A DNA stretch of 64,000 bases from Thermoanaerobaculia bacterium (GCA_963664405.1 OY761158.1:4256001-4320000); one strand, 5' to 3'. Counted from the stretch's first letter, positions 6,639 to 51,507 are shown. Notes: generated from the letters alone by a model not told the origin. Translations and numbers: made by a program.

Positions 6639-7928
6639 ATGAAGGACGCCGCCGAAGAGCTCAATTGCGACATTCGTGAGGGCGCGCCGGCGGTCTGGCG
6701 ATTGCTCTCTTCGCTTGGCCGTAGGGCGATCTACCCTCCAGACATTACTTTTCAGGCGGCCCAGGCCAGAGGCGCTCGTTACAACGCCAGTATCGGCCAG
6801 ATTACCAATGGCGCCGGAGCGGTTCTACCCGTTCCGTCTCTTCACGATCAGCTCGGTGGGTTGCGTGGTGATCGCGACGCAGCCCTTCTTTACTCGCCGA
6901 TCGAGGGAATGCCTGAGATGCGCCGCCTGTGGCGGGAGAGGCAGCGACGCGCCATCGAGAAGACGCCCTCCACCCTGCCGGTCGTGGTCGCGGGACTGAC
7001 TCATGGTCTCAGTCTCATCGCCGATCTCTTCTGTGAAGAGGGGCGTACGGTGGTCGCGCAGTCGCCCTGCTGGGGAAACTACAGACAGATTTTTTCTCTG
7101 CGGCGGGGAGCGAAGGTGGTGGCTGCGGAGGTGTTCGCGTCGGGAGCCTTTGACGCGGCCGCGATTCGCGACCGCCTCGCCGAGATTCCGCCGGGCGATC
7201 CGGCTGTGGTGATCTTGAATCTGCCCTCCAACCCCGTCGGCTACTCCCTGCGGGTCGACGAAAGACACGCTCTCGTGGAGATTCTCCTCGTCGCCGCTTC
7301 CGCGAGGCCCCTTCTCGTGGTCTGCGATGACGCCTACGCCGGTCTTGTCTACGAAGAGGGCATTCCGACTGCGTCACTGTTCTGGGAGTTGGCGGGTCGT
7401 CATCCGAACCTGGTGCCGGTCAAGGTCGATGGGGTGACCAAAGAGCTCGTCTTCTTCGGCGGGCGGGTGGCATTCGTGACTTTCGCGTTTGCTCCGGACT
7501 CCCCAGTCGCACTTGCGCTCGAGAGTAAGTTCAAGTGTCTATTGCGGGCGAGCATCGGGTCTTTGCCGTCGCTCAGTCAAGTGGCGATCACCTCTGCACT
7601 AGAGGCCCCCGAGCTCGATGCCGAGACCGACGCGGTACGGGCAGTGCTCGAGTCCCGCTACAGGGTATTGCGAGCCGCTCTCGATCAGGTACGGAGTGAT
7701 CTCGTTCGTCCTCTGCCCTTCAATTCCGGCTGCTTTGCCCTGCTCCCGCTGGCGGACGGGTTGGACCCCGAGACAGTGAGGGTGCATCTGCTCGAGGAGC
7801 ACGATACCGGGGTCATCGCGATTGCGCCCAACTACATCCGCCTCGCCTATTGCTCGCTGGCGGAAGAAGCGATCCCCGAAACGGTCCGCCGCGTCGCGGC
7901 AGGCCTGGAGGAATGTTTCAGCAGCTAG
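6639..7928 (+). CDS. PLP-dependent aminotransferase class I/II
   Basis: NLPSNPVGYS, CDDAY, KVDGVTKE..FGGRV motifs. Confidence 0.88.
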   Translation: MKDAAEELNCDIREGAPAVWRLLSSLGRRAIYPPDITFQAAQARGARYNASIGQITNGAGAVLPVPSLHDQLGGLRGDRDAALLYSPIEGMPEMRRLWRERQRRAIEKTPSTLPVVVAGLTHGLSLIADLFCEEGRTVVAQSPCWGNYRQIFSLRRGAKVVAAEVFASGAFDAAAIRDRLAEIPPGDPAVVILNLPSNPVGYSLRVDERHALVEILLVAASARPLLVVCDDAYAGLVYEEGIPTASLFWELAGRHPNLVPVKVDGVTKELVFFGGRVAFVTFAFAPDSPVALALESKFKCLLRASIGSLPSLSQVAITSALEAPELDAETDAVRAVLESRYRVLRAALDQVRSDLVRPLPFNSGCFALLPLADGLDPETVRVHLLEEHDTGVIAIAPNYIRLAYCSLAEEAIPETVRRVAAGLEECFSS

Positions 7929-8090
7929 TGCCGTGTCTCCGACATGGCTTACCAATATCTCGGCCCCTTTTGCCCGCTGCCGTCGTTGCGACTCGTCGAC
8001 ATATTCCCAATATGCCTGCCTCGTCGCTCCTTGACAGCGAACAAAATGACCTCGAGCTCTTGGCAAGCCATGTCGGAGACACAACACTAG
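7925..8090. repeat. Family A CTAG-bounded MITE-like structured element, copy A1
   Basis: IRs CTAGTGCCGTGTCTCCGACATGGCTT / AAGCCATGTCGGAGACACAACACTAG; core shared with 17860, 25877, 26039 and 51341; starts on the aminotransferase TAG. Confidence 0.9.
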
Positions 8091-8148
8091 CTCTTTGAAC
8101 CCCAAGATGTCTGGGTGGGAGCGTACGTCTGTGCGATCCCCGCCCAGA

Positions 8149-8808
8149 CTACGATACCGGGATCGAGTGCATCCCCGTCGCCTTCTCAGTGAGTGTGCGT
8201 AGCTCGTCGGCGATAGCGAGGCTGCTGCGCACGGCCGCGGAGGCGAGGTTCTGAAGCTCTTCGGTTAGTGCGTGCTTTTCCAACAGCTGGCGTCCCATCC
8301 GGTGATGCTGGATCTCTTCGGGGTGAATGATCTCTCGATAGAGACGTGCGGTCTCGAGATCTCCCACCGACTTGCAGAACTCGATGAATTGCGCGTTCCG
8401 AATCTCCGCAACGGCTTCTCGGGCGAAGGGACCCGCCGCCACTCGCTCGACCGTTGTCCGTAGACCACGAAGGTAATGGTAGAGCGGGCTGTAGCCCTCC
8501 GCCGCGGGGTCGTACTCGGACATGTCTTCACCGAGCTCGCCGAGGCGCTCGAGGATGAGGTTGTAATGTCTCATCTCGTCTCCGCATTGCTGAGCGAAGG
8601 TCATCTTCACGTCGATCTCCGGAGTGGTCGGCATCCAGTATCCGGCCAGCTCACTAGCCTCGATCTCGCTCTTCAGGGCGAATTTCAAGAGGGTGACCAC
8701 GTCCACCTGTCCGGACGATTCGGACTCGAGAGTCTGTTGCTCGCCGAGCTGAGAGAAGAGCTCGTCCATCAGCTCACGCAGGTGCTTGGCAAACTCGTAG
8801 CTATCCAC
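8149..8808 (-). CDS. Ferritin-like (di-iron four-helix bundle) protein
   Basis: E...DEMRH and E...EEIQH paired ExxH carboxylate/His pattern. Confidence 0.75.
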   Translation of the reverse strand: MDSYEFAKHLRELMDELFSQLGEQQTLESESSGQVDVVTLLKFALKSEIEASELAGYWMPTTPEIDVKMTFAQQCGDEMRHYNLILERLGELGEDMSEYDPAAEGYSPLYHYLRGLRTTVERVAAGPFAREAVAEIRNAQFIEFCKSVGDLETARLYREIIHPEEIQHHRMGRQLLEKHALTEELQNLASAAVRSSLAIADELRTLTEKATGMHSIPVS

Positions 8809-8906
8809 GTCGGCTTCCTCCGTCGAACGAGTCTAGCAGCCTCGTCGAGTTGAGCGGAGCTGAGTTTTCGCTCGGCGACGGCGGCAGAGCGGATAGACTG
8901 GGTTTC

Positions 8907-9782
8907 ATGTTGGCCTCATTCACTGCTGCCATGGCGCTCGCGCTGCTGTCCTCTGCGATGCAGCCGGTCAACACTGTGGATGGCCGCTACCACCTGCCCG
9001 AGAACATGCTCGCCGCGCAGGGCGAGGAGGCGATGGTCCGCTTCGTGCCGGGGACTCTCGACAGGGCGTCTCACCTCTTGCGCCGCTTGGATGTCCTCGT
9101 CATGGATCTTCGAGCGCGGATCAAGACTCCGACACCACTCATTGGCCTCATTCTTTCGAGAAGGCACTGGGAGGAGGCGGGATTCGAACTCCCTTATGGG
9201 CTCCCTGTCTTGATCGGGGCCGGCTCGATCGCGGTTCCGGCCGAAGGCGACGAAACGACGGCGAGGCGTTGGAAGACCTGGTTGGGGACCGATCTCCCAC
9301 CCGTAGCTGGCGTGCCGATGGTCGGAACTGCCGAGCACGCCTCTTCCCTGGTACTCGCCGATGTGCTGCTTCAGCGCGCCGTGTGCGCTTTCGTTCTTGG
9401 ACGCGTCACCTTTACGGGCTCGGAGCAGTGGATCCAGGCGCTCCTCAGTCAGTTTGCGGCCTACACGCTTTTCTCGCTGTACGAGCCCACCCGAGTGCCT
9501 GAGATCGAGATGGTTTACCAGCGACTGCTCCAGAATCTTCCGGTGCTTCTGGCGATCGAACGAGATCGTCCGCCTGGAGTCGAGCGTTGGCTCTTACGTG
9601 AAGCTCAATACTTTGAGGGTGCCTCCTTGATGTATGGGCAAGTCGGCGCCAAGGGCCTGGACCGTTTGATCAAGAAAGTTCGCAAGGAGAAGAGAGCGAT
9701 CACCCGAGAGACCCTGCTCGAGCTCCATCCGGAGCTCGAGCCATGGCTCGTCGAGGTGTCCGAGGACCTCGGCGTCTCCTGA
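8907..9782 (+). CDS. Hypothetical exported protein
   Basis: Long ORF with hydrophobic signal-like N-terminus (MLASFTAAMALALLSSA); no family recognised. Confidence 0.65.
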   Translation: MLASFTAAMALALLSSAMQPVNTVDGRYHLPENMLAAQGEEAMVRFVPGTLDRASHLLRRLDVLVMDLRARIKTPTPLIGLILSRRHWEEAGFELPYGLPVLIGAGSIAVPAEGDETTARRWKTWLGTDLPPVAGVPMVGTAEHASSLVLADVLLQRAVCAFVLGRVTFTGSEQWIQALLSQFAAYTLFSLYEPTRVPEIEMVYQRLLQNLPVLLAIERDRPPGVERWLLREAQYFEGASLMYGQVGAKGLDRLIKKVRKEKRAITRETLLELHPELEPWLVEVSEDLGVS

Positions 9783-9848
9783 CAACTCCACGCCCAGAGT
9801 GTGGGATAATCGGTCCTTCGCTCGCCGCGGCGGGAAGGTTTTTGTGAG

Positions 9849-10883
9849 ATGAATAGCCCGAGGCCCCAAGGACCGCGAGACGTCTTCGAGCGCCCCATTG
9901 ACGATCTTCGAATTTCGGTGATCGATCGGTGCAATTTCCGCTGTACTTTCTGTATGCCGGCGGGGCACACCTATTCATTTCTGCCCCGCGAAGAGCTCCT
10001 CAGCTTCGAGGAGATCACACGACTCGCCAGGGTGTTCTCGACCCTGGGAGTCAGGAAGCTACGACTCACGGGCGGCGAGCCGCTACTTCGTACTGAGATC
10101 GAAAAGCTGGTGAGAATGCTCTCGGAGATCCCGGACATAGACGATCTGGCTCTCACCACCAACGGCCTTCTTTTGGAGCGTAAGGCAGCGCAGTTGAAGG
10201 AGGCGGGGCTTCAGCGAGTCACGGTCAGCTTTCAATCGCTGGACGACGAGGTTTTCGGCCGGATCAACGGCCAGGGCTACCGCGTTAGCGACGTTCTCAG
10301 AGGAATCGACGCGGCAGCTCAGGCTGGGCTCGATCCGGTAAAGATCAATGTAGTCGTGATGAAGGACACCAATGACGGGGAGATACCCGACATCGCCCGC
10401 TTTTTCAAGGAGCGAGGCCACGAGGTGCGCTTTATCGAGTACATGGACGTTGGGACCCTCAACGATTGGGACCCTGACGGCGTGGTGCCGGCGCGGGAGA
10501 TCGTCAGACGGGTGGAGGAAGCCCTGCCGGTCGAAGCCGTCGGTCGCGACCGGGCGAGCGATGTGGCGACAAGATTCCGCTATCGAGATGGCGGTGGCCG
10601 GATGGGGGTGATCGCGTCGGTTAGCGAGCCTTTCTGTGGCGCATGTGCGAGGGGTCGCATTTCAGCCGACGGAAGCTTCTACACTTGCCTCTTCGCCGCC
10701 GCGGGCCACGATCTCAAGACGAGCTTGCGATCAGGAGCCAGCGACGAGGAGATTCGTGAGCTCATATGGGGTATCTGGTCTACTCGCGACGATCGGTATT
10801 CGGAGCTCCGCAGCGAGGCGATAAGCTCTCGAACTCCTCTTTCATCTAACCGAAAAGTGGAGATGTTCCGTATCGGTGGGTAG
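9849..10883 (+). CDS. moaA: GTP 3',8-cyclase MoaA
   Basis: LRISVIDRCNFRCTFCM radical-SAM motif, FCGACARGR..C second cluster, C-terminal IGG. Confidence 0.96.
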   Translation: MNSPRPQGPRDVFERPIDDLRISVIDRCNFRCTFCMPAGHTYSFLPREELLSFEEITRLARVFSTLGVRKLRLTGGEPLLRTEIEKLVRMLSEIPDIDDLALTTNGLLLERKAAQLKEAGLQRVTVSFQSLDDEVFGRINGQGYRVSDVLRGIDAAAQAGLDPVKINVVVMKDTNDGEIPDIARFFKERGHEVRFIEYMDVGTLNDWDPDGVVPAREIVRRVEEALPVEAVGRDRASDVATRFRYRDGGGRMGVIASVSEPFCGACARGRISADGSFYTCLFAAAGHDLKTSLRSGASDEEIRELIWGIWSTRDDRYSELRSEAISSRTPLSSNRKVEMFRIGG

Positions 10884-10983
10884 CGGCCTTGGAATCCGGT
10901 TTGCGGGGTAGACGAGATATGCTTCGAGTCGCCCAGGGCTGGCCGCGGGGCGTTCCACGATCTAGGGAAGAGGTATCGAGCAG

Positions 10984-12942
10984 GTGACGGATCAGATCGT
11001 CATGATTAGGGAGATTGGGGAGGCTCCTCTCGAGCCCGATCGGGTGGGAGAGGCTCTCGATCGGGCCAAGGAGCGCCTGGCATCTCTTCAGGAGGCCGAC
11101 GGCCATTGGTGTGCCGAGCTCGAAGGGGATTCGATCCTCGAGTCAGAGTATGCCCTGACGCTTTACTTTCTGGGTCGCGGTGACGGGCCGGAGCTTGGCC
11201 AGTTGGCCAACCATCTGCGAGCGCAGCGAGTTGCGGATGGGGCCTGGGGAAATTACCCCGGTGGCCCTCCGGAAGTGAGCACCTCGACCAAGGCGTACTT
11301 CGTCCTGAAGCTGGCTGGCGACGACCCCGAGGCTCCTCACATGTGCGAGGCTCGCGAGGCTATCCGTCGCCTGGGTGGTACCGGAGCCTGCAACTCCTAC
11401 ACCCGCCTGCTGCTCAGCATGTTCGGCGTCCTTAACTGGCGCGATGCCCCCGCGGTGCCTCCGGAGATCATCCTCTTGCCGCGATGGTTCTACTTCAATA
11501 TCTACGAGATGTCGGCTTGGTCGCGTGCGATCGTAGTGCCTCTCTCGATTATCTGGGCGCACAAGCCTCTTTGCCCGGTAGCTCCAGAGCATCACCTCGA
11601 TGAGCTCGTTGTAGCCTCTGCGGATATACCTGACGCGCCCCGCCTCGAGACGTGGCGCGAGAGGTTCTGGGGTCTCTTTTTTCGTGGCGTCGATGCCGCC
11701 CTGAAGGTGATCGACGATCTCGGCCTGGTACCGCTTCGCCGGATTGCTCTGAGGCGGGCCGAGGCCTGGGTAGTGGAGCGCTTGGAGGGTGGGGGTGGTC
11801 TCGGCGCTATTTTCCCTTCGATCATGAACACGATCCTCGCTTTGGTTTGTCAGGGTCGGTCGCAAGACGACCCCCTCGTCGCAGGTGAGCTCGAGGAATT
11901 GAAGGCGCTGGAGATCCTGGATGGTGACTGTCTACGCCTACAGCCGTGCTTGTCCCCGGTCTGGGATACCGCGCTGGCGATGAACGCCTTGGTGGCGGCC
12001 CGCTCGCCCGCCGAGGATCCGGCCCTGCAGCGGGCGGCAGCCTGGCTACTCGACAAGGAGGTACGTCGCGTCGGTGATTGGAAGCACAAGAATCCGAAGG
12101 GTCGCCCAGGGGGTTGGTTCTTCGAGTACTCCAACGAGTTTTACCCGGACTGTGACGACACTGCCGAGGTGATGATCGTTCTGTCGCAGGTAGCGATGGT
12201 CGACGGCGGTGACGAGGAGCGTCGGCGCGCCGCGTTGCAAAGAGCGCTGGCCTGGCAGCTCTCGATGCAGTGCCGGTCAGGCGGGTGGGGTGCTTTCGAC
12301 AAGGACTGTGATCATGAGGTCCTCGATCTGGTGCCGTTCGCCGATCACAACGCCATGCTCGACCCTCCGACCGTCGATGTCACGGCGCGCACCCTGGAGG
12401 CTCTGGTGAAGATGGGGCTCGATCCCTCTCATCCAGCGATCCGTAAGGGGGTTGCTTTCCTGTGGGCGGAGCAGGAGCCTGAAGGGTGCTGGTACGGACG
12501 CTGGGGAGCGAACTACGTCTATGGGACCTGGTTAGCTCTGAGCGGCCTTCGCCTCGTCGGCGAGGAGATGATGGATTTGCGGATGCGGCGCGCGGTGGAC
12601 TGGTTCCTCGACTGCCAGAACGACGATGGCGGCTGGGGCGAGTCGCTTCTTTCCTACTCCGACCCCGAGACCAAGGGCCGTGGGCCGACCACGGTCTCCC
12701 AAACGTCGTGGGCGCTCCTCGGGCTTCTCGCCGCCGCAGACCTAGGGAGTGCTCGCGTTCAGTCGGCTCTCGGTCGTGGAATCGACTTCTTGCTCTCGAC
12801 TCAAGGTGAGGACGGCGGTTGGTACGACGAATTCTGGACAGGGACCGGTTTCCCCAAGGTCTTTTATCTGCGCTATCACCTCTACCCCTGCTATTTCCCG
12901 CTGCAGGCCCTGGCTGCCTACCGGCGTGCCGTGGAGTTATAA
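10984..12942 (+). CDS. shc: Squalene-hopene cyclase
   Basis: Catalytic DCDDTAEV (DxDD), QW repeats, SPVWDTAL, GTGFPKVFYLRYHLY. Confidence 0.97.
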   Translation: MTDQIVMIREIGEAPLEPDRVGEALDRAKERLASLQEADGHWCAELEGDSILESEYALTLYFLGRGDGPELGQLANHLRAQRVADGAWGNYPGGPPEVSTSTKAYFVLKLAGDDPEAPHMCEAREAIRRLGGTGACNSYTRLLLSMFGVLNWRDAPAVPPEIILLPRWFYFNIYEMSAWSRAIVVPLSIIWAHKPLCPVAPEHHLDELVVASADIPDAPRLETWRERFWGLFFRGVDAALKVIDDLGLVPLRRIALRRAEAWVVERLEGGGGLGAIFPSIMNTILALVCQGRSQDDPLVAGELEELKALEILDGDCLRLQPCLSPVWDTALAMNALVAARSPAEDPALQRAAAWLLDKEVRRVGDWKHKNPKGRPGGWFFEYSNEFYPDCDDTAEVMIVLSQVAMVDGGDEERRRAALQRALAWQLSMQCRSGGWGAFDKDCDHEVLDLVPFADHNAMLDPPTVDVTARTLEALVKMGLDPSHPAIRKGVAFLWAEQEPEGCWYGRWGANYVYGTWLALSGLRLVGEEMMDLRMRRAVDWFLDCQNDDGGWGESLLSYSDPETKGRGPTTVSQTSWALLGLLAAADLGSARVQSALGRGIDFLLSTQGEDGGWYDEFWTGTGFPKVFYLRYHLYPCYFPLQALAAYRRAVEL

Positions 12943-12983
12943 GATGTCTCGGCGATAGCGCCGAGTGAGAAGGAACCAAGTCG

Positions 12984-13985
12984 ATGCGACACCCTCTGCA
13001 CATGATGACCGACATGATGAAGCTCGGACTGCGCAACGCTCTGAAGGGCAATAAGCGTTATCCCTACGTGCTCATGTTGGAGCCGCTCTACACCTGCAAC
13101 CTCGCATGTCTAGGGTGTGCCAAGGAGCGCCACACCGGAAAGCTGAAGGATCGCTTAGCGCTGGAGGAGTGTTTCGAGGCCGTTGAAGAGAGCGGCGCAC
13201 CGACGGTCTCCATCTGCGGCGGCGAGCCCACGATCTATCCGGAGCTTGCCGAGCTGATCGCCGGCATCATCGCCCGCAATCGCCACATCATCCTGTGCAC
13301 CAATGCCCTACTTCTGGACGAGAATCTATTCGGCAAGGTCGCCCCTCATAAGAGGCTGACGGTGAACGTTCACCTCGATGGACTTCAGGAGACTCACGAC
13401 TACGTATGCGCCCGAGAGGGTGTTTACACCAAGGCGTTGGAGATGATCAAAGAGTCCAAACGGCTCGGGTACCACACAACCACCAACACCACGATTTTCA
13501 AAGAGACCGAGATCGACGAGGTGGAGGAGCTGTGTCGTGTTCTTGCGGAGATCCCGGTCGATGGCATGCTCATCTCTCCCGGCTACCAGTACGAGTCGGT
13601 TGACGCGGATATGTTTCTGACCCGTCAGGATACTGAGAAGAAGTTCGAGCGAGTGCTCGAGATCGCGAAAAAGTACCGGGTCACCTCCACGCCGATGTTT
13701 CTCGAGTTCGCAGCCGGCAAGCGGGACTACGAGTGCTCGCCGTGGAGCACGGTTACCCGCACTCCCCTTGGATGGAAGGGCCCCTGCTATCTGATTGGCA
13801 AGCAGTACTCCGAGACTTGGGAAGAGTTTTGGAACGGTACCGATTGGTCGTATTGGGAGTCTCGTCAGGACGATCTCTGCCAGAATTGCTCCATGCACTC
13901 CGGTTTCGAGGCTTCGGTTGTGCGTAATCTGCACAAGAGCCCGCGCGACATGCTCCGCATGGCGAGCTGGTACCTCTCCGCCTAG
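12984..13985 (+). CDS. hpnH: Adenosylhopane synthase (radical SAM) HpnH
   Basis: LMLEPLYTCNLACLGC, GWKGPCYL, CQNCSMHSGFE; directly follows shc. Confidence 0.93.
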   Translation: MRHPLHMMTDMMKLGLRNALKGNKRYPYVLMLEPLYTCNLACLGCAKERHTGKLKDRLALEECFEAVEESGAPTVSICGGEPTIYPELAELIAGIIARNRHIILCTNALLLDENLFGKVAPHKRLTVNVHLDGLQETHDYVCAREGVYTKALEMIKESKRLGYHTTTNTTIFKETEIDEVEELCRVLAEIPVDGMLISPGYQYESVDADMFLTRQDTEKKFERVLEIAKKYRVTSTPMFLEFAAGKRDYECSPWSTVTRTPLGWKGPCYLIGKQYSETWEEFWNGTDWSYWESRQDDLCQNCSMHSGFEASVVRNLHKSPRDMLRMASWYLSA

Positions 13986-14130
13986 CCTAGGCTCCAGAAA
14001 TGATGGCTATCATTTCCTCCGCCTAGTTGTCTCTTGGCGCCGAGGACGGCGCACTTGGGCGTTGCTTCCTATTCGCTCACGGAAACGGCTCAGGACGAAT
14101 ACTCGGACACGCTCCTAGCCTCCAGAAATG

Positions 14131-15414: not shown

Positions 15415-16076
15415 CAGAAATGATGGCTATCATTTCCTCCGGCTAGTTTCTGTTTGGCGCCGAGGACGGCGCAGGTAGGCGTTGCTCCCTATTCGCTTCG
15501 GGTATCGGTGTCGTTTCAGGCTCCTAGCCCGAGAGGAAATGATGGCTATCATTTCCTCCGGCTAGTTTCTGTTTGGCGCCGAGGACGGCGCAGGTGGGTG
15601 TTGCTTCCTATTCGCTTCGGGTATCGGTGTCGTTTCAGGCTCCTAGCCCGAGAGGAAGTGATGGCTATCATTTCCTCCGGCTAGTTTCTGTTTGGCGCCG
15701 AGGACGGCGCAGGTGGGCGTTGCTCCCTATTCGCTTCGGGCATCGGGTGTCGTTTCAGGCTCCTAGCCCGAGAGGAAATGATGGCTATCATTTCCTCCGG
15801 CTAGTTTCTGTTTGGCGCCGAGGACGGCGCAGGTGGGTGTTGCTTCCTATTCACTTCGGGTATCGGGTGTCGTTTCAGGCTCCTAGCCTGAGAGGAAGTG
15901 ATGGCTATCATTTCCTCCGGCTAGTTTCTGTTTGGCGCCGAGGACGGCGCAGGTGGGCGTTGCTCCCTATTCGCTTCGGGTATCGGTGTCGTTCCCCAGG
16001 CTCCTAGCCCAAGAGGAAATGATGGCGCCGAGACGGCGCGTCCTCCGGGAGGGCGATCTGGGGTACCCTGAAGCTG

Positions 16077-17069: not shown

Positions 17070-17863
17070 TCGGAGACTTCTGGGGTGATGACGGAGGGTT
17101 TGATCTCTTGAGCGCCGGCGCCGAGCTCGCGATCATTGCAGCGCAGCGGGAGGAGGTACAACCGCTCCTCGCTCGCCTGAGCTCGCGTCGCCGCGGTCAG
17201 CTCCAGAGTGTCCCCTACTGGACAGGCGGATTGGCCGGTACCGAGGTCCTGGTCGCGATCAGCGGAGTTGGGCAAGAGCGGGCCCGCATCGCTGCCGAGG
17301 AGCTGCTCTCCCAGTCGGTGCCTTTCTTGATGGTGGTCGGGGTGGCAGGCGCGTTGAGCCCAGAGCTCGAGATCGGGTGCATCCTGGCAGCCGAGGAAGT
17401 CTGGGCCGAGGGCGCCGCGGCGTTGGCGTGCGACAGGGAAATTCTCGCTCTTGCAAGTGCTCGTCCAAGAGTGCAGGTGGGCGCGATTCTCACCCTCGAC
17501 CACATCGTTGCCACAGTAGCTGAGCGCGCCTCCCTCCTTCGCTCCCTCGGCTCGCCCGCTGCGGCTGTTGCTGTGGACATGGAGTCCTGGGACTTCCTCG
17601 ACGTTGCCAAGCAGTGCGCCGTCCCCTGTACCGTGCTTCGCGCCATCAGTGACACTTCTCGCGAGAACCTCCCCACCTTCCTCGAGCGCGGCCGCAGGCC
17701 CGACGGCACCCTCAATCGGGGTCGCGTCGCGCTCTCGGCCCTGGCCCGGCCGGCCTCGATTCCCAGTCTGCTGGCACTCCGGCGACGTGTCCGTGTCGGT
17801 GCCGAGGATCTGGCCGAGTTGGTGGAGAATCTGGCCCCCTCGGCCGCGGCGGTTGCTCCCTAG
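17066..17863 (+). CDS. hpnG: Nucleoside phosphorylase, HpnG-like (adenosylhopane nucleosidase)
   Basis: SGVG, GVAGAL, AVDMES, LRAISD phosphorylase motifs; overlaps the hpnA stop. Confidence 0.78.
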   Translation: MIGDFWGDDGGFDLLSAGAELAIIAAQREEVQPLLARLSSRRRGQLQSVPYWTGGLAGTEVLVAISGVGQERARIAAEELLSQSVPFLMVVGVAGALSPELEIGCILAAEEVWAEGAAALACDREILALASARPRVQVGAILTLDHIVATVAERASLLRSLGSPAAAVAVDMESWDFLDVAKQCAVPCTVLRAISDTSRENLPTFLERGRRPDGTLNRGRVALSALARPASIPSLLALRRRVRVGAEDLAELVENLAPSAAAVAP

Positions 17864-18025
17864 ACCAGCGTTTCCAAAGCTCGCGTACATATCTCGGCCC
17901 CTTCTGCCCGCTGGCGGCGTTACGCCTCCTCGATATATTGCCCAATATGCCTGCGTCGGCGCGCCTAGCCAGCGAACAGAATGACCTCGAGCTATGCAAC
18001 CCGAACTTTGGAAGCGCTGGTCTAG
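17860..18025. repeat. Family A element, copy A2
   Basis: IRs CTAGACCAGCGTTTCCAAAG / CTTTGGAAGCGCTGGTCTAG; starts on the hpnG TAG. Confidence 0.92.
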
Positions 18026-25176: not shown

Positions 25177-25880
25177 GTTCGAGTCCGCGCCCCGAGTTTC
25201 TCTACCTCGGTCACTCCACCGTTCAATGCACTCTTCCGGGTGGGGAAGTCGTGCTGATCGATCCCTGGGTCGGCCAGAATCCGGCCTGCCCGCCAGAGCT
25301 CGAGAATCTCGAGCGCATCGATGCAATGCTGATCACTCATGCCCACTTCGACCACATTGGTGACGCGGTCGAGTTGGCGAAGAAGCATCGCCCAAAGAAA
25401 GTGGTTGCCTGCTATGAGGTCTGTGAGTGGCTGGAGTCGCAGGGTGTGGAGAACTGTGCCGGAATGAACCTTGGCGGTTCTCAGGACGTGCTCGGCGCGC
25501 GTGTGACCATGGTACGTGCCGATCATTCGTCGGGGGGTGGCGCCGTCGGCTATGGTGCTGTTGCGTCCGGCTACATTGTTCGTCTTCCGGAGGGCTACAC
25601 CTTCTATCATGCCGGCGACACGGCCCTGTTCTCGGACATGGAGCTCTTCGCCGAGCTCTATCGCCCCGAGTTGGCCTTCCTCCCCATTGGCGATCTGTTC
25701 ACCATGGACCCCGAACAGGCCGCTCTCGCCTGCCGGCTACTCGGTGTTTCGGTCGTGATCCCGGTGCACCACAGCACCTTTCCACTTCTGACCGGAACGC
25801 CCGAGCAGCTCGTTTCGTGCCTTCAAGACCGCGGTATCAACGCCAAGGTGGTGGCTCTGAGGCCCGGCGACACCTACTAG
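25173..25880 (+). CDS. Metallo-beta-lactamase fold metal-dependent hydrolase (UPF0173-like)
   Basis: YLGHS, THAHFDH, YHAGDT, LPIGD, IPVHH. Confidence 0.88.
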   Translation: MSSSPRPEFLYLGHSTVQCTLPGGEVVLIDPWVGQNPACPPELENLERIDAMLITHAHFDHIGDAVELAKKHRPKKVVACYEVCEWLESQGVENCAGMNLGGSQDVLGARVTMVRADHSSGGGAVGYGAVASGYIVRLPEGYTFYHAGDTALFSDMELFAELYRPELAFLPIGDLFTMDPEQAALACRLLGVSVVIPVHHSTFPLLTGTPEQLVSCLQDRGINAKVVALRPGDTY

Positions 25881-26042
25881 ACCAGCGTTTCCAAAGTTCG
25901 CGCACATATCTCGGGCCCTTCTGCCCGCTGGCGTCGTTTCGCCTCCTCGACATATTTCCCAATATGCCTGCGTCAGCGCGCCTAGCCAGCGAACAGAATG
26001 ACCTCGAGCTATGCGGCACGAACTTTGGAAACGCTGGTCTAG
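25877..26042. repeat. Family A element, copy A3
   Basis: 24-bp perfect IR CTAGACCAGCGTTTCCAAAGTTCG; starts on the hydrolase TAG. Confidence 0.93.
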
Positions 26043-26207
26043 TGGACCGTAACACTCGAACGTTTAGTGGCTGAGTGAGTCATTCGTGGTCGAGATCAAG
26101 GCGCGCTGACGCAGGCATAGCCGGGGACTATGTCGAGGAAGCGTAACGCAGAGATCGGCCGCGAGGGCCGCTCAGGCGCTAAACGTTTGGGTGTTACGGT
26201 CTACTAG
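26039..26207. repeat. Family A element, copy A4 (inverted, different IRs, shares its CTAG with A3)
   Basis: IRs CTAGTGGACCGTAACACTCGAACGTTTAG / CTAAACGTTTGGGTGTTACGGTCTACTAG; core AAGGCGCGCTGACGCAGGCATAG..CTATGTCGAGGAAGCGTAACGC. Confidence 0.85.
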
Positions 26208-35029: not shown

Positions 35030-35031
35030 GC

Positions 35032-40529: not shown

Positions 40530-40539
40530 GCAACCGATC

Positions 40540-40687: not shown

Positions 40688-40713
40688 TCAGAGCTTGCCG
40701 GAACGGAGATCCA

Positions 40714-41466: not shown

Positions 41467-41472
41467 TTTGGG

Positions 41473-42996: not shown

Positions 42997-43080
42997 TGGC
43001 TCCCCTTTGCTGCCGCCGAATTACTGTCGGATCTTGCCCGAATATACTAGTGGACATCACCCATATCCGAGGGAGCAAGA

Positions 43081-43956: not shown

Positions 43957-43965
43957 AGGGCTTCT

Positions 43966-44484
43966 CTGAAGTACGCGCGAATCGAATGTGAGCGTCGCTT
44001 TCTGGTTCGTGCGATGCCGGCGGAGCCGGATCTCGAGTCGGGGTTCCGAGAGATTCGAGATCTCTACATCGAAGGGACTCACCTTCGGCTTCGAGAGGTC
44101 CGCGCTGCTGACGGATCGCCGGAGCGGTTCAAGCTCACCCAGAAGCTTGGGACCGACTCAGCTCTCGCCACCCAGATCACCAATCTCTACGTCAGCGAGG
44201 CTGAGCACGCGCTGCTTGCTCAGCTACCGGGACGCACTCTCTTGAAGCGTCGTTACTCTTTCGAGTGCGCGAGTGCCCGCTTTGGAATCGACCGGTTTCT
44301 CGGGCAGCTCGAGGGACTGATCCTCGCCGAAGTCGAAGGTAGCTCAGCCGCCGAGCTCGCGGCCATTCCGTCCCCACCTTTCGCTCACTGTGAGGTCACG
44401 GACAGCCCGGCATTCACCGGTGGTGAGCTCGCATACGCAGAACCGGCGGACGTTCTAGCGTTGATGGCACGACTGCTGGGCTAG
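43966..44484 (+). CDS. CYTH-domain protein, probable CTG start
   Basis: KYARIECERRFLV (ExER motif) lies upstream of ATG 44014; LRLR, KRRY, LAEVE, EVT. Confidence 0.75.
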   Translation: MKYARIECERRFLVRAMPAEPDLESGFREIRDLYIEGTHLRLREVRAADGSPERFKLTQKLGTDSALATQITNLYVSEAEHALLAQLPGRTLLKRRYSFECASARFGIDRFLGQLEGLILAEVEGSSAAELAAIPSPPFAHCEVTDSPAFTGGELAYAEPADVLALMARLLG

Positions 44485-44497
44485 AGCAAGACGGTAC

Positions 44498-45685
44498 TCA
44501 AGCAAGCAAAAGCAAGAGCTCACGCTGGGGCTCCGCTCCGCTGATCTCCGCCCGCTCCGGGGTGAGTACCACATTGATCTCGCTCCGCACCCCGAAGTCC
44601 CCGGGAAAGTAGATTCCAGGCTCGATCGAGAAACCGGTCATCGACTGCAGGCGGCGATCGTCGTGGGTCTCGAGGTCGTCCATGTTCGCCCCCTGGCCGT
44701 GATCGCTGATGCCGATCGAGTGACCGGTGCGATGGATGAAGTACTCGCCATAGCCCTCCGACTCGATGATTCCGCGCGCCGCGTTGTCGACTTCATAACC
44801 GTGGATGGCCTGCGCCGGATAGCGCGAAGAGATCAACTGAAAGGCAGCGTCGCGCGCCCGCGCAACGATCCCGAAGATCTCCCGCTGGCGAGCGGTGGCC
44901 TCGGCCGCGCAAACTCCGCACCAGGTGATGTCGGCATAGACGCTGCGGGCCTCGCGCTCTTTGGCCCACAGGTCGATGAGGAGAAAATCCCCCTTCTCGA
45001 TCATCGAGCTCGCGTCGGCCGTCGGTTGGTAGTGAGGGTCGGCACTGTGAGCGTTGACCGCAACGATCGGGGACGACTCGGCCCACAGGCCGGCGCGCTC
45101 GAAACCTTCGAGGATGAATAACTGCACTTCGTACTCGCTGATCTTGGTGCTGTCGCTGAGGGCGTTGCCGACGCGATTCATGGCTGCTCGTGCGAGCTCG
45201 TGTAGGACCTTGCAAGTGCTTTGGTGGCCTGCGAGCTGATCTTCGTCCCAGGAGGCCGCGAAAAGCTGGATCAGCTCCGCCGAAGAGACGAGCTCGATGC
45301 CGTCTTCGCGCAGCAGTTCGGCGGTTCCCGCATCGAGGCGAGACACCGTTGGAAGTTGGTTTCCTGGGCTGTACTGAGCGGCCAACCTCTTCATTCCTGC
45401 GACGAGCTCGGCGAGAGCGGATCGATGCTCTTTCCAGGTGAGATAGCGGGCTTTGGTACCGGGAAGCAGGTCGAGCATCCCCGGCTCGAGGCGATGCACG
45501 AGCCGCCGCGGCTCTCCGACTGCCGGGACCAGGTAGTAGCAGCGACGAGTGACGAGGTGATCGCCGACGAGGTCCAGAAGCTCGAGACTCACCGGGTCGT
45601 TGTGCTGAAAGCAGGCGAAGAGCCAACCGTCGAGCCCCTCTTTGCGGAGCGCCTCCTGGATGGCTTCGATGCGATCGGCGATCAT
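44498..45685 (-). CDS. M24-family (Xaa-Pro) aminopeptidase
   Basis: DPHY, IDLWAK, YADITW, FIHRTGHSIG, FSIEPGIY, GVRSE. Confidence 0.92.
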   Translation of the reverse strand: MIADRIEAIQEALRKEGLDGWLFACFQHNDPVSLELLDLVGDHLVTRRCYYLVPAVGEPRRLVHRLEPGMLDLLPGTKARYLTWKEHRSALAELVAGMKRLAAQYSPGNQLPTVSRLDAGTAELLREDGIELVSSAELIQLFAASWDEDQLAGHQSTCKVLHELARAAMNRVGNALSDSTKISEYEVQLFILEGFERAGLWAESSPIVAVNAHSADPHYQPTADASSMIEKGDFLLIDLWAKEREARSVYADITWCGVCAAEATARQREIFGIVARARDAAFQLISSRYPAQAIHGYEVDNAARGIIESEGYGEYFIHRTGHSIGISDHGQGANMDDLETHDDRRLQSMTGFSIEPGIYFPGDFGVRSEINVVLTPERAEISGAEPQRELLLLLA

Positions 45686-45704
45686 GTCTCTTTCACGCTA
45701 CTCG

Positions 45705-47087
45705 TCATTGGAAGGATCGACCGCCGATGACCGCCCAGATGACCCAGCCGATCGCGACCGGGCTGACCACGCGTAGGAGAAAACGCCACAGCGGGTACAA
45801 ATTGAAAGAGCCGTGCCCCTCTTCGAGCTCTTCTCGGGTGAGCTTGGCGCTCAAGAACCAGCCGGTGAAAATGGCAATGAGGAATCCGCCCACTGGGAGG
45901 ATCCAGTTGGAGGCTAGATAGTCGAGAGTGTTGAAAACGCCGCCGTTCAGTACCTGGCTGAGGAAAGGGCTGGCACCGAGGCTGAGCGCGGCAGGCACTC
46001 CGACCAGAAAGATGCCGACACCGATGAGAAGAGTCGCCCGCTTCCTTGTCCAATGTCTGATGTCGATGAAATAGGAGACAACGACCTCGAGTATGGAAAT
46101 GGTGGAGGTGAGCGCCGCGAACGAGACCAAAAGATAGAAGAGCGGGGCGAGCACACTTCCGAACGGCAGAGCGTAGAACATGCGCGGGAGAGTCGTGAAC
46201 AGGATTGTCGCGCTCTTCGAAAAGGTGTCGGCGCGAGCCGCTTCCGGAACGCTGAAGATGATCGAGAACATGATGATGCAGGCTGACATCCCCATCGCGG
46301 TGTCGAGGATGCAGACGGTGGCCGCAGCCCGCGGGATGGACTGCTTGCGGGAAATGTAGGAGCCGTAGGTGATCATTGCTCCCATCCCCAGAGACAGGGT
46401 AAAAAAGGCGTGGCCGACGGCTTCGAGAACATTCGAGGCCGAGATCGGGCTGATGTGGAAGAGAAAGCGGAGGGCTTCTCCGAACCCGGGAGCGAAGAAC
46501 GAGTTCACCACCAGCAGGGCGACAATGCCCCCCAGGATGGGCATCAAGGTCTTGGTGACGCGTTCGATGCCGGCGCGGACGCCGAGAACGACGACTCCCA
46601 TCGTTGCAGCCATGAAGAAGGCGTGGAAACCGAGTTGGAGCGGGGTGTTGACGAGGAACTGGCCGAAGTCCTCCCCGAGATTGTCGGCGATCTGGTCGGT
46701 GAAGCCGGTCATCGACCACAACAGGCAGCGTCCGAAGTAGTAGACCGTCCAGCCGGCGATCACCGAGTAGTAGGAGAGGATGACTCCACCACCGAGTACC
46801 CCGAACCACCCCACGATCGACCAGGCCCTCCCACCGGGGAGACCTTGGCTTAGCTTGGTGAACGCACCGACGGGACTCAGCTGCGTATGGCGGCCGATCA
46901 GAATCTCGGCGAACATGATCGGTGCGCCGATGAGAAGCACCGCGGCGAGGTAGATGAGGACGAAGCTGCCGCCCTCGTTCTCGTAGGTGATGTAAGGGAA
47001 CTTCCAAATATTGCCCAGGCCGATGGCCGAGCCGGCGGCGGCCAAGACGAATCCCACACGCCCGAAGGTCCCTCTTTGCTCAGCCAT
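45705..47087 (-). CDS. Sodium-dependent transporter (NSS/SNF family)
   Basis: GSAIGLGNIWKFPY, AFFTLSLG, AALTSTISILE. Confidence 0.94.
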   Translation of the reverse strand: MAEQRGTFGRVGFVLAAAGSAIGLGNIWKFPYITYENEGGSFVLIYLAAVLLIGAPIMFAEILIGRHTQLSPVGAFTKLSQGLPGGRAWSIVGWFGVLGGGVILSYYSVIAGWTVYYFGRCLLWSMTGFTDQIADNLGEDFGQFLVNTPLQLGFHAFFMAATMGVVVLGVRAGIERVTKTLMPILGGIVALLVVNSFFAPGFGEALRFLFHISPISASNVLEAVGHAFFTLSLGMGAMITYGSYISRKQSIPRAAATVCILDTAMGMSACIIMFSIIFSVPEAARADTFSKSATILFTTLPRMFYALPFGSVLAPLFYLLVSFAALTSTISILEVVVSYFIDIRHWTRKRATLLIGVGIFLVGVPAALSLGASPFLSQVLNGGVFNTLDYLASNWILPVGGFLIAIFTGWFLSAKLTREELEEGHGSFNLYPLWRFLLRVVSPVAIGWVIWAVIGGRSFQ

Positions 47088-47095
47088 TTAGCGTG

Positions 47096-50000
47096 TCAGT
47101 CGCCTATGTTCACAGGTGCGGCGAGGGACTCTAGCACGGCGCTACGGGGTCGACCTGGCGTCGGGCTTTCGACTTTGCGAGTGAGCCATTCCTGGCGGTA
47201 GCGGCGCAGCTCCGGGGTCTCAGGATAGGTAGTTCCCGCCGGATAGGGGTAGCTCCCCATGGCGCGGAACGGCAGCGGCTCCATTTGGTCCGCCTCCCAG
47301 GTATTGCGGTCGGCGTCCTTGTTCCAACCGTGACTCTCGAGGAAGACGGTACGGCGCCAACCCGTAGCGAGCGGCGGAAGCTCGGCGGTGTCGAAGCGGA
47401 GGCTGAGCTCGTCTCCAGCGGCGAGGATCACCTGTCGGTCGTCGTCGTCGATGAGAAGCTCCCGAACGTCACCGTAGCGAGTGTAGTTGCCCTCGAGGGC
47501 GAGCCAAGGACTCTGGCTCGAGACCCTGGTGTAGTCGAAGCCGTGGGGCGCGTTAGGGGCCGTACGAGTCAGCGAAGAGAAGCCTCGGAAGTGGAGATCC
47601 GCCCGCGTTGGGTCGAGGCGCGCTATGACCTTCGCACCCTCGTCTCGAGGCGCGGTGCTCCAGGCGATCCGGTCCCAGTGCAGCCAGCGCGAGGTGACGA
47701 TGCGGAGCTGGTGCACGTTGGGAGGTAGGGGCGGGGTGTCGATCACCATCGTCTTTGTTTTTCCGGCCGGATGACCCATCTTTGGCATCAGTACTTTCCA
47801 ACCCGCCTCGGTCTTCATCTCGAGACGAGTGAGAATCGGTTTGCGCTGGCGCTGATCGATCGCCAGATTGAGGCTGGCGTCGGCGGGGAAGATCCAGCCG
47901 TCGAGTAGAAGTCGCACCGAGCCGGCCGGTGCCGCTCCGAGGTCGAGGGTGAAGGTCCACGGTTTTCGCGCTACGCCCTGATAGGCACCGATGCCGTAGC
48001 CGTCGGCGTAGACCTCGTCGCGATCGCGAACGAGGGTGGTGACGTCTTCCCCTTGCCCGTCCCAGGCGGCTTTCAGGGGGCGTACCCTAGCGGTCGCGAG
48101 AACCCGATCTTCGACAGATTCGCCCGGGATGATGCGCAAGCTGGAGGCAACCTCGAGCTCCGCTGGATGGTCGACGACCCAGAGCCGAGTGAGGTCGAAG
48201 AATGCCGCCTCCCAGAGCTCCTCTGTGATGCGTAGATCGTAGCTCCCATCCCGCTCGCTCGCTCCGTCAACACGCACGAGCTCGGTCATGTCGTAGCCCG
48301 CCCAGACTCCCTCCGCAACCGGCATACCCAAGGGGGCCCCCCACAGAAGATCTGTGACAAAGCGGACCCCCTCGCCGGTCTCGGTGTAGAGGAAGGGGCA
48401 GCTTCCTTTCAACACCTGCTCCTCGACGATGCGCTGCTCCTCACAGGGCCTGATGCGGTTCTGGGGAACGCCATTGGTCCACGTTACTCGGAGCAGGTCG
48501 GGGCAGTCGATCTCGCCCAGCCCGATGTGGCTGACTTCGGAAGTGACCTCGCGGTACTGATAGGCATCGCCGGCAAAGATCTCCAGCTGAGCGCCGAGGC
48601 CGAGGAGGTTGTTTTTGCCGTTGCCTTTGTCCAGCCCGACCAACGAGACTTCCAGCCAGCGGTTCTGGTTACCGCCGAAGTTCTCCAGCCGGTAGAGCCC
48701 GCCGGGGCCGGTGACCACCAGGTCGATGTCGCCGTCGAGGTCGAGATCACCGGCGCCGAGGCCGAGGATCTCTCCTTGTATGGGGTTCTCGAGGGTGGTG
48801 CGCAGAAAGATCCCTTCCTTGGGCTGGGTGAGAACGATGAGCCCCTCCGGCCCGGCGGCTACGATGTCCATGCGGCCGTCGTTGTCGGCGTCGATGTCCA
48901 GGAGCGTGTTGAAAACGCTGGTGCGTGGAATATCCCCTCTCACCTCCCACGGCTCGAAACGGTGGCCTCGATTGCGCCAGAAGCGGAGCCCCGTGCTGGC
49001 GCTGACCAGATCGGGTAGGCCGTCGTTATCGAGATCGACGCTGAGCAGGTCGTGAGCGGTGCCGATCTGGTCCAAGCCGGCAGCTGTGGTGCGGTCCGCG
49101 AAGCGCCCTTGGCGTAGGTTGTCGAGAAAGAAGGCGCCCTCTTCCGCGACACCGTAGAGATCGAGATCGCCATCGCGGTCGAGGTCGCTGGCGCTGAGCT
49201 TCTTGATGGCGGTAGGACCAACGCTGGTGAGCACTCCGGGCCCCAGGGGCTGCAGCGGGCCTTCGAGTGCGTTGCGGAAGAGCTCGATTCCCGAAGTGGC
49301 CGAGCTTGCCGCTGCGAGGTCCAGATCACCTTCGCTGTCGTAGTCGAAGGCGGCCAGCACGTGGGCCTCGGCGCCCTCGGCGAAGAAGGCCTCGGTCGCC
49401 TCCTCGAATCCTCCCTGGCTGTTTCCCTTCCATACCTCGAGCCTTTCACCGTAGCCCACGAGATCGATCGCGCCGTCGTTATCGAGATCGATGGCTTGGA
49501 GACCGGTAACAGCTCTGGCAGAGAGAGTGGAGCTGACGGCGTGCTGATCTCGCGACAGCCTCAACTCGAGTACGCTCCGGTCCCCTGTCGAGATACGAGC
49601 GATGTCCGGCCGGCTGTCAGCGTCTAGGTCCGCTACTACCAAGGCTCGCCCGGAGCCCGCAGTGGGGTCGAGCGTCGAGCCGCGAAAGCGAATCGCCGAC
49701 GCGGCGCCAAAGGTTCGTCGCTCGGGCTCGTCCACGAAGCGTGCCACCGGAACGCCCTGAATGCCGGTAGTGAGCTCGCGCAGGCTGTTCTGGAACATCG
49801 CTTCTTGCTTGAGCACGTTCTCGACAATGAAGGCGGGACGGCCTGCTGCCTCTAGGTCGTTGCGCTCCAGAGCCTCGAGAACGAGCGCCACTTGCTGCTG
49901 AGGAAGACCGGGGGTCCGCCAGACCAGCTCGCGCACTCGAAGAAACGAGCGTGTGGCGAGCGCTCGGTCGTTGTTGGCGACGGCGTACTGGCCCAACTTC

Positions 50001-50506
50001 AGCAGCACATAGAGATTCTCAGGTCGGAGATCAGCCAGACTCAAGAGGACGCGATTCGCCTGCCTCTCGGCTTCGTCTCCGCGCATCGCCGTCGCTTGGC
50101 GATAGAGGGCATGTGCGATCTCCAGATCGTCCGGGTCGGCATCGTGCGCTGCGCTAAGAGTGGCGAGAGCCTCCTCCCTGGCGCCACCCCAGACAAAGAT
50201 CTCACCTTTGATCGCCAGTAGGTCGGCTCGACCGGGGGCGAGCTCGAGGGCGCGATCGATGGCCGCCTCGCCTTCGTCGAGCTGCTGTCGACGCAACAGG
50301 GCGATCGCCAGGTTCGCATGTCCCAAGGGTTCTTCGGGGAGGAGCTCGACCAGGCGGCGGTAGTGCTCCTCCGCTGCCGCCGGTCGCTCGTTCTCGAGCT
50401 CGGCAAGTCCGAGGTTGCGAAGCTCGAGGGCCTCGGGGGGAGGGACTGCTGCGGAGCTCGCAGCGAACGAGGCCACGAGCAGCATGGCAAGAATGGGCCG
50501 AAGCAT
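47096..50506 (-). CDS. Large exported TPR + FG-GAP/VCBS + ASPIC/UnbV (CRTAC1-like) protein
   Basis: N-terminal TPRs, many DLDxDGxxDL repeats, [28 protein letters not shown]. Confidence 0.88.
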
Positions 50507-50554
50507 GGCACGATCTTACCTCCGAGCAGTCCTCCAGGAGATCGACCCCGACTC

Positions 50555-51325
50555 ATGTTCGAACGCTTCTTCCAATTGCAGTCAAACGGCACCAGCGTCG
50601 GCCGCGAGGTCAGAGCGGGTATTAACCACCTTTCTGACCATGGCCTACATTCTCTTTGTCAATCCGCAGATTCTGGCCGATGCAGGAATGCCAGCCGAGG
50701 ATGTCGCGGTTGCGACAGCGCTGGCCGCGGCGGTCGGGACGGCGATCATGGGTCTGGTGGCCCGCTATCCCTTCGCGTTGGCGCCGGGAATGGGTTTGAA
50801 CTCCTACTTTGCTTACGGTGTGGTCGGTGGACTGGGGGTGAGTTGACAAGTAGCTCTTGGCGCTGTCTTCGTAGAGGGCGTTCTGTTCATGCTGCTCTCC
50901 CTCGGTGGCTTCCGGCGGAGGCTTCTCGCCGCGGTTCCGATGAGCTTGAAACAGGCGGCGATGGTCGGCATAGGCCTCTTTCTCGCCTTCATCGGCTTAC
51001 GCAACGGAGGCATCGTCGAGGCCGATCCTGCCACCATCGTCCGCCTCGGTGATCCGACCTCCGGAGAGTTGTGCTGACTCTGTGTGGTCTTCTGGCGGTG
51101 GCGGTTCTAGTCGCGCGTAGAGTTCCCGGTGCGATCTTGCTCGGCATGATCGGGGCTGCGTGCGTCGGTTGGGGAACCGGTCTTTCGCCCGCTCCGGCGG
51201 GTCTTCTTTCGCGTCCACAGCTACCTCAGACAACCTTCTTTGCCCTCGACTTTCAAGATCTGGCCAGCGGAGCTTTGGTTGTGGCTGTGCTCGCCTTTCT
51301 CTTCTGTCTCTATCTCAAACCCTAG
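50555..51325 (+). pseudogene. NCS2/AzgA-family purine permease pseudogene
   Basis: [29 protein letters not shown]; frameshift ~50624, TGA at 50844 in place of Trp, frameshift ~51070, 3' half lost next to element A5. Confidence 0.88.
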
Positions 51326-51340
51326 ACCCGCGTATCCGAA

Positions 51341-51507
51341 CTAGACCAGCGTTTCCAAAGTCGCGCTACAATAGCTCGCGGTCATTCTGTTCGCTGGCAA
51401 GGCGCGCCGACGTAGGCATATTGGGGAATATGTCGAGGAGGCGCAACGCCGCCAGCGGGGCAGAACGGGCCGAGATATGTAGCGCTACTTTGGAAACGCT
51501 GGTCTAG
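51341..51507. repeat. Family A element, copy A5 (inverted relative to A1-A3)
   Basis: IRs CTAGACCAGCGTTTCCAAAGT / ACTTTGGAAACGCTGGTCTAG; right CTAG is the TAG stop of the minus-strand DUF983 gene. Confidence 0.92.

Follow-up and report, generated by a model that had tools for sequence, protein, structure and literature searches.

The window analyzed here is a 64,000 bp stretch of the genome of a Thermoanaerobaculia bacterium (GCA_963664405.1, OY761158.1:4256001-4320000), and it contains five short elements, bounded by CTAG, which carry the same internal hairpin within different sets of inverted-repeat ends (called shells below; S1, S2 and so on). These elements are non-autonomous transposons (MITEs: miniature transposable elements with inverted repeats) that insert at TA within CTAG. 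It is nearly certain that their common core is a portable, covarying, strand-specific hairpin module with fixed purine loops, and that it is carried by many end sets and element architectures in genomes labelled as members of several phyla. This Acidobacteriota genome is a single 6.78 Mb contig of about 62% G+C, and coordinates written G000:C1 refer to it; all other positions are counted from the first base of the window.

The core is an irregular hairpin, P1-P2-P3, on the purine-rich strand. From the outside inwards, P1 is followed by N-AGGC opposite AAC-G-MM, by the 5 bp helix P2 and by a tandem G.A/A.G; then come one Watson-Crick pair, GNA opposite GA, the 7–8 bp helix P3 with its nearly fixed G.U, and a terminal loop that is often G-rich. 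The purine-rich internal loops (AGGC, GA, GNA/GA, GA and AAC-G) are almost invariant, and the differences in the stems are compensated changes, transversions included. The pair beside the tandem G.A, for example, is C-G versus G-C in a ratio of 24:7 in this genome and 17:10 in its relatives. In 29 other genomes the mean frequency of the commonest base is 0.88 in internal-loop and bulge columns and 0.70 in paired columns.

Three sets of cores were examined for covariation. Among 31 representatives from this genome 90.4% of cells are paired, versus 79.9% after shuffling, 10 of the 24 pairs show double changes, and covariation is 0.26, compared with 0.088 in shuffled alignments (0 of 500 reach the observed value) and 0.03–0.08 when pairing partners are slid. 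The second set holds the best match from each of the 29 other genomes (29 distinct rows) and the third 71 distinct sequences from public genomes, both alignments having been fitted to our own structure model; in the former 88.5% of cells are paired versus 62.5% shuffled and covariation is 0.625 versus 0.179 (slid partners at most 0.086), in the latter 89.9% versus 68.9% and 0.434 versus 0.122 (slid partners at most 0.079), and each has double changes at 20 of the 24 pairs. A structure-free check, in which 34 sequences were aligned with MAFFT and folded with RNAalifold, returned the same three helices, with 18 of the 22 predicted pairs compensated. A preliminary description of the window, made from its sequence alone, had claimed compensatory stem changes, including the C-G/G-C swap beside the tandem G.A, and near-fixed loop motifs, and had named covariation as a test that could overturn it; covariation is strong in the three data sets and in the MAFFT/RNAalifold check, and the swap and the greater constancy of the loops in the 29 genomes are both borne out.

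The comparison with Rfam that the same description proposed left the core without an Rfam 15 family. No family reached its gathering threshold anywhere in the window, and a search of 22 stretches against Rfam 15 at E up to 1–10 gave only chance-level noise, the best score being 28 bits against a threshold of 149. A kink-turn has a C-stem, a 3-nt bulge and tandem G.A/A.G directly abutting the stems. Inspection of the alignment led us to reject this motif for the core, whose tandem G.A has Watson-Crick pairs on both sides, one of them covarying, and in which the opposite side of the AAC bulge is a fixed C-G pair and not G.A; readings as an attC-like or SRP (signal recognition particle)-like structure were likewise rejected by inspection.

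Folding of the core is strand-specific. On the purine-rich strand cells with G.T outnumber those with A.C by 86:11, 44:6 and 119:28 in three alignments (71 of the 119 in the third are fixed by the search pattern). Transitions are equally likely to yield G.T or A.C on a given strand, the other strand then having the reverse, and copies are found both ways round, so this excess of G.T on one fixed strand argues for selection on that strand. When whole elements are folded, the purine strand is the more stable by 14–37 kcal/mol as RNA and by 7–17 kcal/mol as DNA (7 of 7 shell families); as RNA, the two strands of the S1 element have energies of -109 and -85 kcal/mol. For the core alone, it is again the purine strand that has the greater stability, in 21 of 21 other genomes when folded as RNA and in 19 of 21 when folded as DNA.

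The five CTAG-to-CTAG elements lie in the window where they had been placed, with lengths of 166, 166, 166, 169 and 167 bp, and the end and core sequences quoted for them agree with the window sequence. The elements themselves are given unstranded, and the strand of each core is that of its purine-rich sequence. A1 (7925..8090) has shell S4a with ends TAGTGYYGTGTCTCCGACATGG and CTAG at both ends, and near-identical copies of it are found elsewhere in the genome by BLASTN; its core hairpin (7972..8043, minus strand; nhmmer match 7982-8033 on the minus strand, and alignment) has the G-C version of the pair beside the tandem G.A. A2 (17860..18025), with ends TAGACCAGCGTTTCCAAAG, and A3 (25877..26042) both have shell S1, and their cores, both on the minus strand, are at 17906..17978 (nhmmer 17916-17968; covariance model match G000:C1:4273906-4273978) and 25923..25995 (nhmmer 25933-25985; covariance model match 4281923-4281995). 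A4 (26039..26207) has shell S2 with ends TAGTGGACCGTAACACTCG and has only the core and a few flanking bases in common with S1; its core (26087..26159, plus strand; nhmmer 26097-26149 on the plus strand, and alignment) has GAGATC/GAGATC with a central tandem G.A as P1, GCGCT/AGCGT as P2 and GCATAG/CTATGT as P3. A5 (51341..51507), of an S1 sub-lineage, lies in the orientation opposite to A2 and A3, has at least five copies at 100% identity in the genome, and has its core at 51388..51460 on the plus strand (nhmmer 51398-51450; covariance model match 4307388-4307460). A search of the window with the core profile in nhmmer found no sixth core. A3 and A4, which have different types of shell, adjoin with one common CTAG (26039-26042, the right end of A3 and the left end of A4); this is what would be expected if the target is recreated at the ends by each insertion, and a MITE and an IS630-like element in a related genome (G046; L078 and L079) likewise adjoin with a common CTAG.

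Genome-wide, BLASTN with the five elements, the collection of copies that had been proposed, gives 284 merged loci, of which 189 are 160–189 bp long, and the core profile (nhmmer, run three times) finds 248 cores, 125 on the plus and 123 on the minus strand. When these are sorted by end motif, at least eight shell types surround one 60–73 nt core: S1 is present at both ends of 129 cores, S2 of 33, S3 of 22, S4a of 16, S4b of 11, S7 of 7, S5 of 5 and S6 of a single core. A few copies have a shell at one side only, and one single-copy chimera (G000:C1:3688766, L036) joins S4b on the left to S2 on the right, around an S2-type core. Altogether 247 of the 248 cores lie inside a named shell, and the remaining one has degenerate S3-like flanks. 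Flanks of the form C-TAG...CTA-G are seen in 159 of 175 intact copies (duplication of TA and of CTAG cannot be told apart from sequence alone), elements are 163–167 bp long with a long form of 176–178 bp, and in most copies at least 15 of the 20 terminal bases are complementary, the terminal inverted repeats (TIRs) being of eight types. Groups of 5, 5 and 3 identical S1 copies at separate loci indicate recent spread.

Between the seven shell consensuses the terminal 30 nt are 0.61–0.65 identical, against 0.56 ± 0.05 for shuffled sequences with the same aligner, and the core is 0.78 identical, against a shuffled baseline of 0.60 ± 0.03. Shells S1, S4a and S4b have about 105 internal bp in common, with a sharp break about 28–31 nt from each end, which looks like end replacement rather than gradual drift. 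The proposal of interchangeable end sets around a structured core is supported and extended, with at least eight shells here and further shells and architectures in other genomes. The three end sets first recognized are indeed distinct, but "unrelated" was too strong a word for them, as they have in common the CTAG/TA target and, by eye, a loosely similar start of the type TAG-N3-CCYGT. Core variants are reticulate among the shells: an S1-type core is found inside one S2 copy, the GCATAG/CTATGT tip is present in S2, S1 and S7, and a long core variant with 13–14 extra nt in the 3' arm occurs in about 30 S1, two S2, two S3 and three S5 copies. The extra nucleotides of the long variant (GGGGRCGCCYAGYC-like, in the 3' arm of P2; e.g., G000:C1 369624, 1755309, 87554 and 1787394) could be an optional additional stem or a trace of exchange among cores.

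Other elements have inserted into some of the cores. A second small element, N1, is nested at the CTAG of the core 5' arm in 12 S1 copies, which are 242 or 255 bp long with an extra segment of about 78 nt that begins TAGGAGCCTGCGAAGCAGG (e.g., G000:C1 481085-481340, 657301-657543 and 6423888-6424130); the S1+N1 composite seems to have multiplied as a unit. In two composites of equal length (2704 bp; L001 1-3001, G000:C1:6272300-6275300, and L002, G000:C1:6758700-6761700) the hairpin loop of an S1 core is split by an insert of about 2.5 kb that carries genes for a 299-aa tyrosine recombinase (Phage_integrase) and a 398-aa IS91-type protein (Y2_Tnp + Zn_Tnp_IS91). Another S1 copy (L003, G000:C1:6281500-6285500) contains an IS21-like element whose IstA-like (523 aa) and IstB-like (269 aa) products were assigned by size and order of the open reading frames (ORFs), and two further cores are truncated at the loop.

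The core is widespread outside this genome. With a covariance model it was found in 38 of 61 genomes of the same family and order (this one included), representing 21 of 34 genera and 9 of 12 families, and several relatives have at least 80 core matches. An even sample of the phylum has it in 42 of 151 genomes and 33 of 106 genera at E ≤ 1e-5 (41 of 150 genomes without the unpublished genome G108). A strict pattern of 23 fixed bases and two variable gaps matches at least 116 stretches in the public genome collection, against about one match expected by rough arithmetic with uniform base composition. Among the matches listed (80 loci), those on the Acidobacteriota side are in metagenome-assembled genomes (MAGs) labelled Acidobacteriota, Thermoanaerobaculia and Terriglobia, and others are in MAGs labelled Brocadiaceae, Geobacteraceae, Syntrophales/Syntrophus, "Deltaproteobacteria" and Gemmatimonadota. 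Five such MAGs, labelled Brocadiaceae, Geobacteraceae, Gemmatimonadetes, Syntrophales and Gemmatimonadota, have 8, 54, 5, 5 and 15 matches, respectively, and because these are spread over many contigs a single mis-binned contig is an unlikely source. Elements of other architectures are found in these other genomes, with TWA flanks and spans of 124–270 bp. They include a 124 bp element and a 168 bp element beginning GGGCCTGT, both with TTA flanks, and a Y-shaped element of about 194 bp with TAA flanks, all of which carry the core, as do TA-flanked elements of 159–162 bp.

The transposase that reads the shells is harder to name. Mobilization by several IS630-like end types, as had been suggested, is not supported: IS630-family genes number only two in this genome, neither has ends that match a shell, and neither copy holds a core. 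Nor did the proposed matching of end types to resident transposases succeed, as no shell has a full-length insertion sequence (IS) partner. In a genome-wide search for the ends, no transposase gene was found between shell ends 0.8–2.5 kb apart; the mid-size pairs consist solely of S1 copies interrupted by unrelated insertions, and shell ends nearly always adjoin a core (for S1, 287 of 305 end motifs). In 60 relatives, co-occurrence of the core with DDE_3, IS1182-like or Y1_Tnp genes is absent or weak. DDE_3 is present in 11 of 37 core-bearing versus 10 of 23 core-free genomes, and matches to the IS1182 model in 19 of 37 versus 6 of 23; both were not found in G005 (40 core matches) and G055 (72 core matches). 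Y1_Tnp was not found in eight of the 37 core-bearing relatives, three of which have 35, 78 and at least 80 core matches. This genome has 13 weak Y1_Tnp matches (E 1e-9 to 1e-6, in open frames of about 300–440 aa; e.g., at G000:C1 6395600, 2208475 and 412965), which may be RAYT-like or IS200-like relatives.

The search for an autonomous parent also covered two other insertion sequences. An IS1182-family IS with the same CTAG target as the MITEs is present in eight copies of 1562 bp with a 439-aa transposase (363 bits versus a cut-off of 270); these copies (L199, G000:C1:377802-381284, and seven more) are CTAG-flanked with ends CTAG-GAGTCTGCGCGGCAG, which resemble the nested N1 and not S1–S7, and N1 with this IS is the closest end match in the genome. 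In G046 the MITE merely adjoins an IS at the common CTAG, and the ends of that IS are only loosely like S1.

We give even chances to the reading that the core is a strand-specific module that acts in cis and on which selection works through the spread of elements. Selection would act on which elements spread and not on each inserted copy, and the core would promote mobilization or amplification whatever transposase reads the ends. Among the 129 S1 copies, 18 private substitutions fall in the 62 sites of the core and 41 in the 102 of the shell (22.3 would be expected in the core with an even distribution); because they are roughly uniform, inserted copies appear to decay about evenly, which fits selection on which elements multiply rather than on each copy. 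The balanced orientation relative to genes and the negative promoter and terminator scans, both given below, count on the same side. In the form we prefer, the G-rich strand would fold as single-stranded DNA at the replication fork, the whole element would become a rod about 80 bp long that ends in the core, and the purine loops would be recognized by a conserved factor of the host or the transposon. This single-stranded DNA form, taken by itself, is possible but clearly less probable than the general reading, and an RNA form of the same fold is, as a hypothesis, a close second to it. Of the "structured RNA or ssDNA module under selection" in the preliminary description, the structured core under selection stands, and its working form may be either RNA or single-stranded DNA. 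The purine strand is on the leading-strand template in 150 copies and on the lagging-strand template in 98 (p about 0.001) when the origin is put at the GC-skew minimum, and the split becomes 148 versus 100 if dnaA marks the origin; the tendency has the same direction in five of six shell families. Scarcity of the foldable strand on the lagging-strand template could represent preferential excision or loss there. The GC-skew minimum is at about 2.74 Mb of G000:C1 and the maximum at the end of the contig, with dnaA at 3.418 Mb; the replichores look unequal, or the region between the minimum and dnaA looks rearranged.

It is conceivable, although unlikely, that the core is a portable mobilization module of a new kind, a strand-specific structure that makes any end pair highly proliferative and that is either read by a conserved protein not yet described or is itself a small catalytic RNA. 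If this were true it would account for the retention or capture of the core by unrelated MITE lineages in several phyla, and bacterial MITEs would owe their success to a second cis element in addition to their terminal repeats.

Several points weigh against a cis-acting module selected through element spread. The partner protein was not found, either by the shell-end search here or by gene co-occurrence in the 60 relatives, and DDE cut-and-paste transposition is not known to require a single-stranded stage. The bias relative to replication is modest and comes from one genome with an origin placed by GC skew or dnaA, and its direction would agree equally well with a loss of foldable copies and with a positive role. 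The test with private substitutions has low power (59 in all), so that the depletion of about 30% seen in the core may be real. The sets of 29 genomes and 71 sequences were gathered by means of a model or pattern that itself derives from the core; this exaggerates loop conservation, so that the true gap between loops and stems may be smaller, and the loop blocks of the 71-sequence set are fixed by the search pattern. Gene orientations come from a crude ORF/GC3 caller (5392 genes), and the MAG labels were taken from record titles and may be wrong.

The alternative that survives best, although we think it unlikely, is that the core works as RNA, transcribed by read-through or from a promoter of its own, as a protein-binding hairpin, a processing signal or a small ribozyme that serves the host or the element. 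G.U-rich pairing, tandem G.A and a fixed AAC bulge are typical of RNA motifs, the strand difference in energy is large (-109 versus -85 kcal/mol for S1), and copies are enriched between convergent genes, with 71 of 207 intergenic copies in convergent spacers (32 in divergent ones) compared with 722 of the 3481 spacers genome-wide. On the other hand, the copies have no orientation bias relative to genes, since in tandem spacers 55 cores run with the direction of the genes and 49 against it, and inside ORFs the numbers are 21:20; no sigma-70-like promoter or intrinsic terminator was found in the three elements scanned (0 sites); the search at E up to 1–10 described above gave no Rfam family; and private mutations are not clearly depleted in the core. 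In public RNA runs, one metatranscriptome has only three short contigs that touch the stretch, and these, as contigs, show neither strand nor ends; a second possible RNA run has none.

Somewhat less probable still is a core without function, in which all families descend from one ancestral foldback MITE, the likeness of the cores is due to recent horizontal spread, gene conversion between copies and hairpin-templated repair, and the ends were replaced to suit the available transposases. The reticulate variants (the S1-type core in S2, the long variant in S1, S2, S3 and S5, and the one chimera), the uniform private mutations and the lack of orientation bias to genes are what such a history would leave. 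However, unpaired loops are more conserved than stems in the 29 genomes, the stems differ by compensated changes that include transversions, and the same core is present in architectures with different target duplications. Templated repair, moreover, would erase the G.A and bulge asymmetries and would not give G.T far in excess of A.C on one fixed strand.

It is improbable that the core serves as a landing pad, attracting insertions in the manner of a REP-like hairpin, with different IS ends having been assembled around it. The IS91-like transposase and tyrosine recombinase genes found twice in the hairpin loop, the IS21-like element in one copy, N1 at the 5'-arm CTAG in 12 copies and the two more cores truncated at the loop would fit such an origin. 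But there is no naked core (even the one of the 248 that is outside a named shell has degenerate shell flanks), end-to-core spacing and total length (163–167 bp) are kept across shells, and subterminal sequence is partly common to them. Finally, it is very improbable that the conserved blocks are duplex DNA binding sites for a bending or nucleoid protein that helps the two ends of so short an element to pair: 165 bp is near the persistence length of DNA, and IHF sites are reported in Correia and ERIC-type elements (review PMC2229807), but the free compensatory change of the stems and the G.T/A.C asymmetry point to intrastrand pairing, and the blocks are not palindromic half-sites.

RUP of Streptococcus pneumoniae and other TA-inserting MITEs attributed to IS630-family transposases are like the elements described here in being small, with TIRs, TA insertion, many copies and a long foldback. 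What defines the RUP-type families is the match of their ends to a resident IS630 element; here, in contrast, the shells have no counterpart in a resident IS, and it is the center that is conserved, being common to at least eight end types. There is also a likeness to Tourist-type (PIF/Harbinger-IS5) elements, in that sister elements in other genomes begin GGGCCYGT and are flanked by TAA or TTA, and in that shells of this genome have a CCYGT-like start. A 3-bp TWA duplication with a GGSCYNGT-type start is found in sister families L137, L146 and L160 but not in the CTAG copies of the window, which lie at TA within CTAG (159 of 175 intact copies in the genome), and a DDE_Tnp_4 gene was not found in this genome. 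A conserved structured core is not known as part of the Tourist definition.

REP/REPIN elements, which are mobilized by RAYT (Y1) transposases, have strand-specific hairpins, high copy numbers, enrichment between convergent genes and a partner gene that is not necessarily flanked by the repeats. The elements here differ from them in having TIRs and TA/CTAG or TWA flanks, and in the eight core-bearing relatives in which Y1_Tnp was not found. High-copy genomes in which the search did not find it are G004, G030, G051 and G024, so that the association with a Y1 gene that marks a REPIN/RAYT system is not seen. Correia/NEMIS, ERIC, BOX and BIME repeats are likewise intergenic and fold into hairpins, and BOX and BIME are modular mosaics, but each is confined to a genus or family, whereas the core described here crosses labelled phyla. 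Stable folds at the RNA level have been described for bacterial MITEs (in the portions available of PMC3184786 and PMC10969869), and those same sources, as far as available, hold no description of the Correia, ERIC, BOX or BIME repeats as one covarying, fixed-loop core reused under different TIRs across phyla. Chunjie of Geobacter uraniireducens is also a Geobacter MITE with a very stable fold. According to the part of a review available to us it is A+T-rich, with 21-bp TIRs and 9-bp direct repeats (PMC3184786), and judged by that description it is not the same element, as the Geobacteraceae elements found here are TA-flanked and carry the core. The core was not found described in the literature searched, including the available portions of PMC11602168, PMC10969869 and PMC3184786; the supplements of a 2024 MITE census, which were outside that search, could list such elements.

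The elements agree with most of what characterizes a bacterial MITE, except for a matching full-length IS. MITEs are usually thought to need only their terminal repeats, the interior being filler. Here the interior is the conserved part, and one hairpin is present with two kinds of target duplication in at least four or five labelled phyla, which makes the core a candidate either for a second sequence that MITEs require in cis for their spread or for a structured RNA not described before. A covariance model of it would help with the annotation of repeats that number in the hundreds per genome, in Acidobacteriota as well as in other bacteria of soil and sediment. Compared with RUP, Correia, ERIC, BOX, Tourist-like elements and REPINs, what is different is that the conserved unit is an internal structured module and that the ends and target duplications around it differ.

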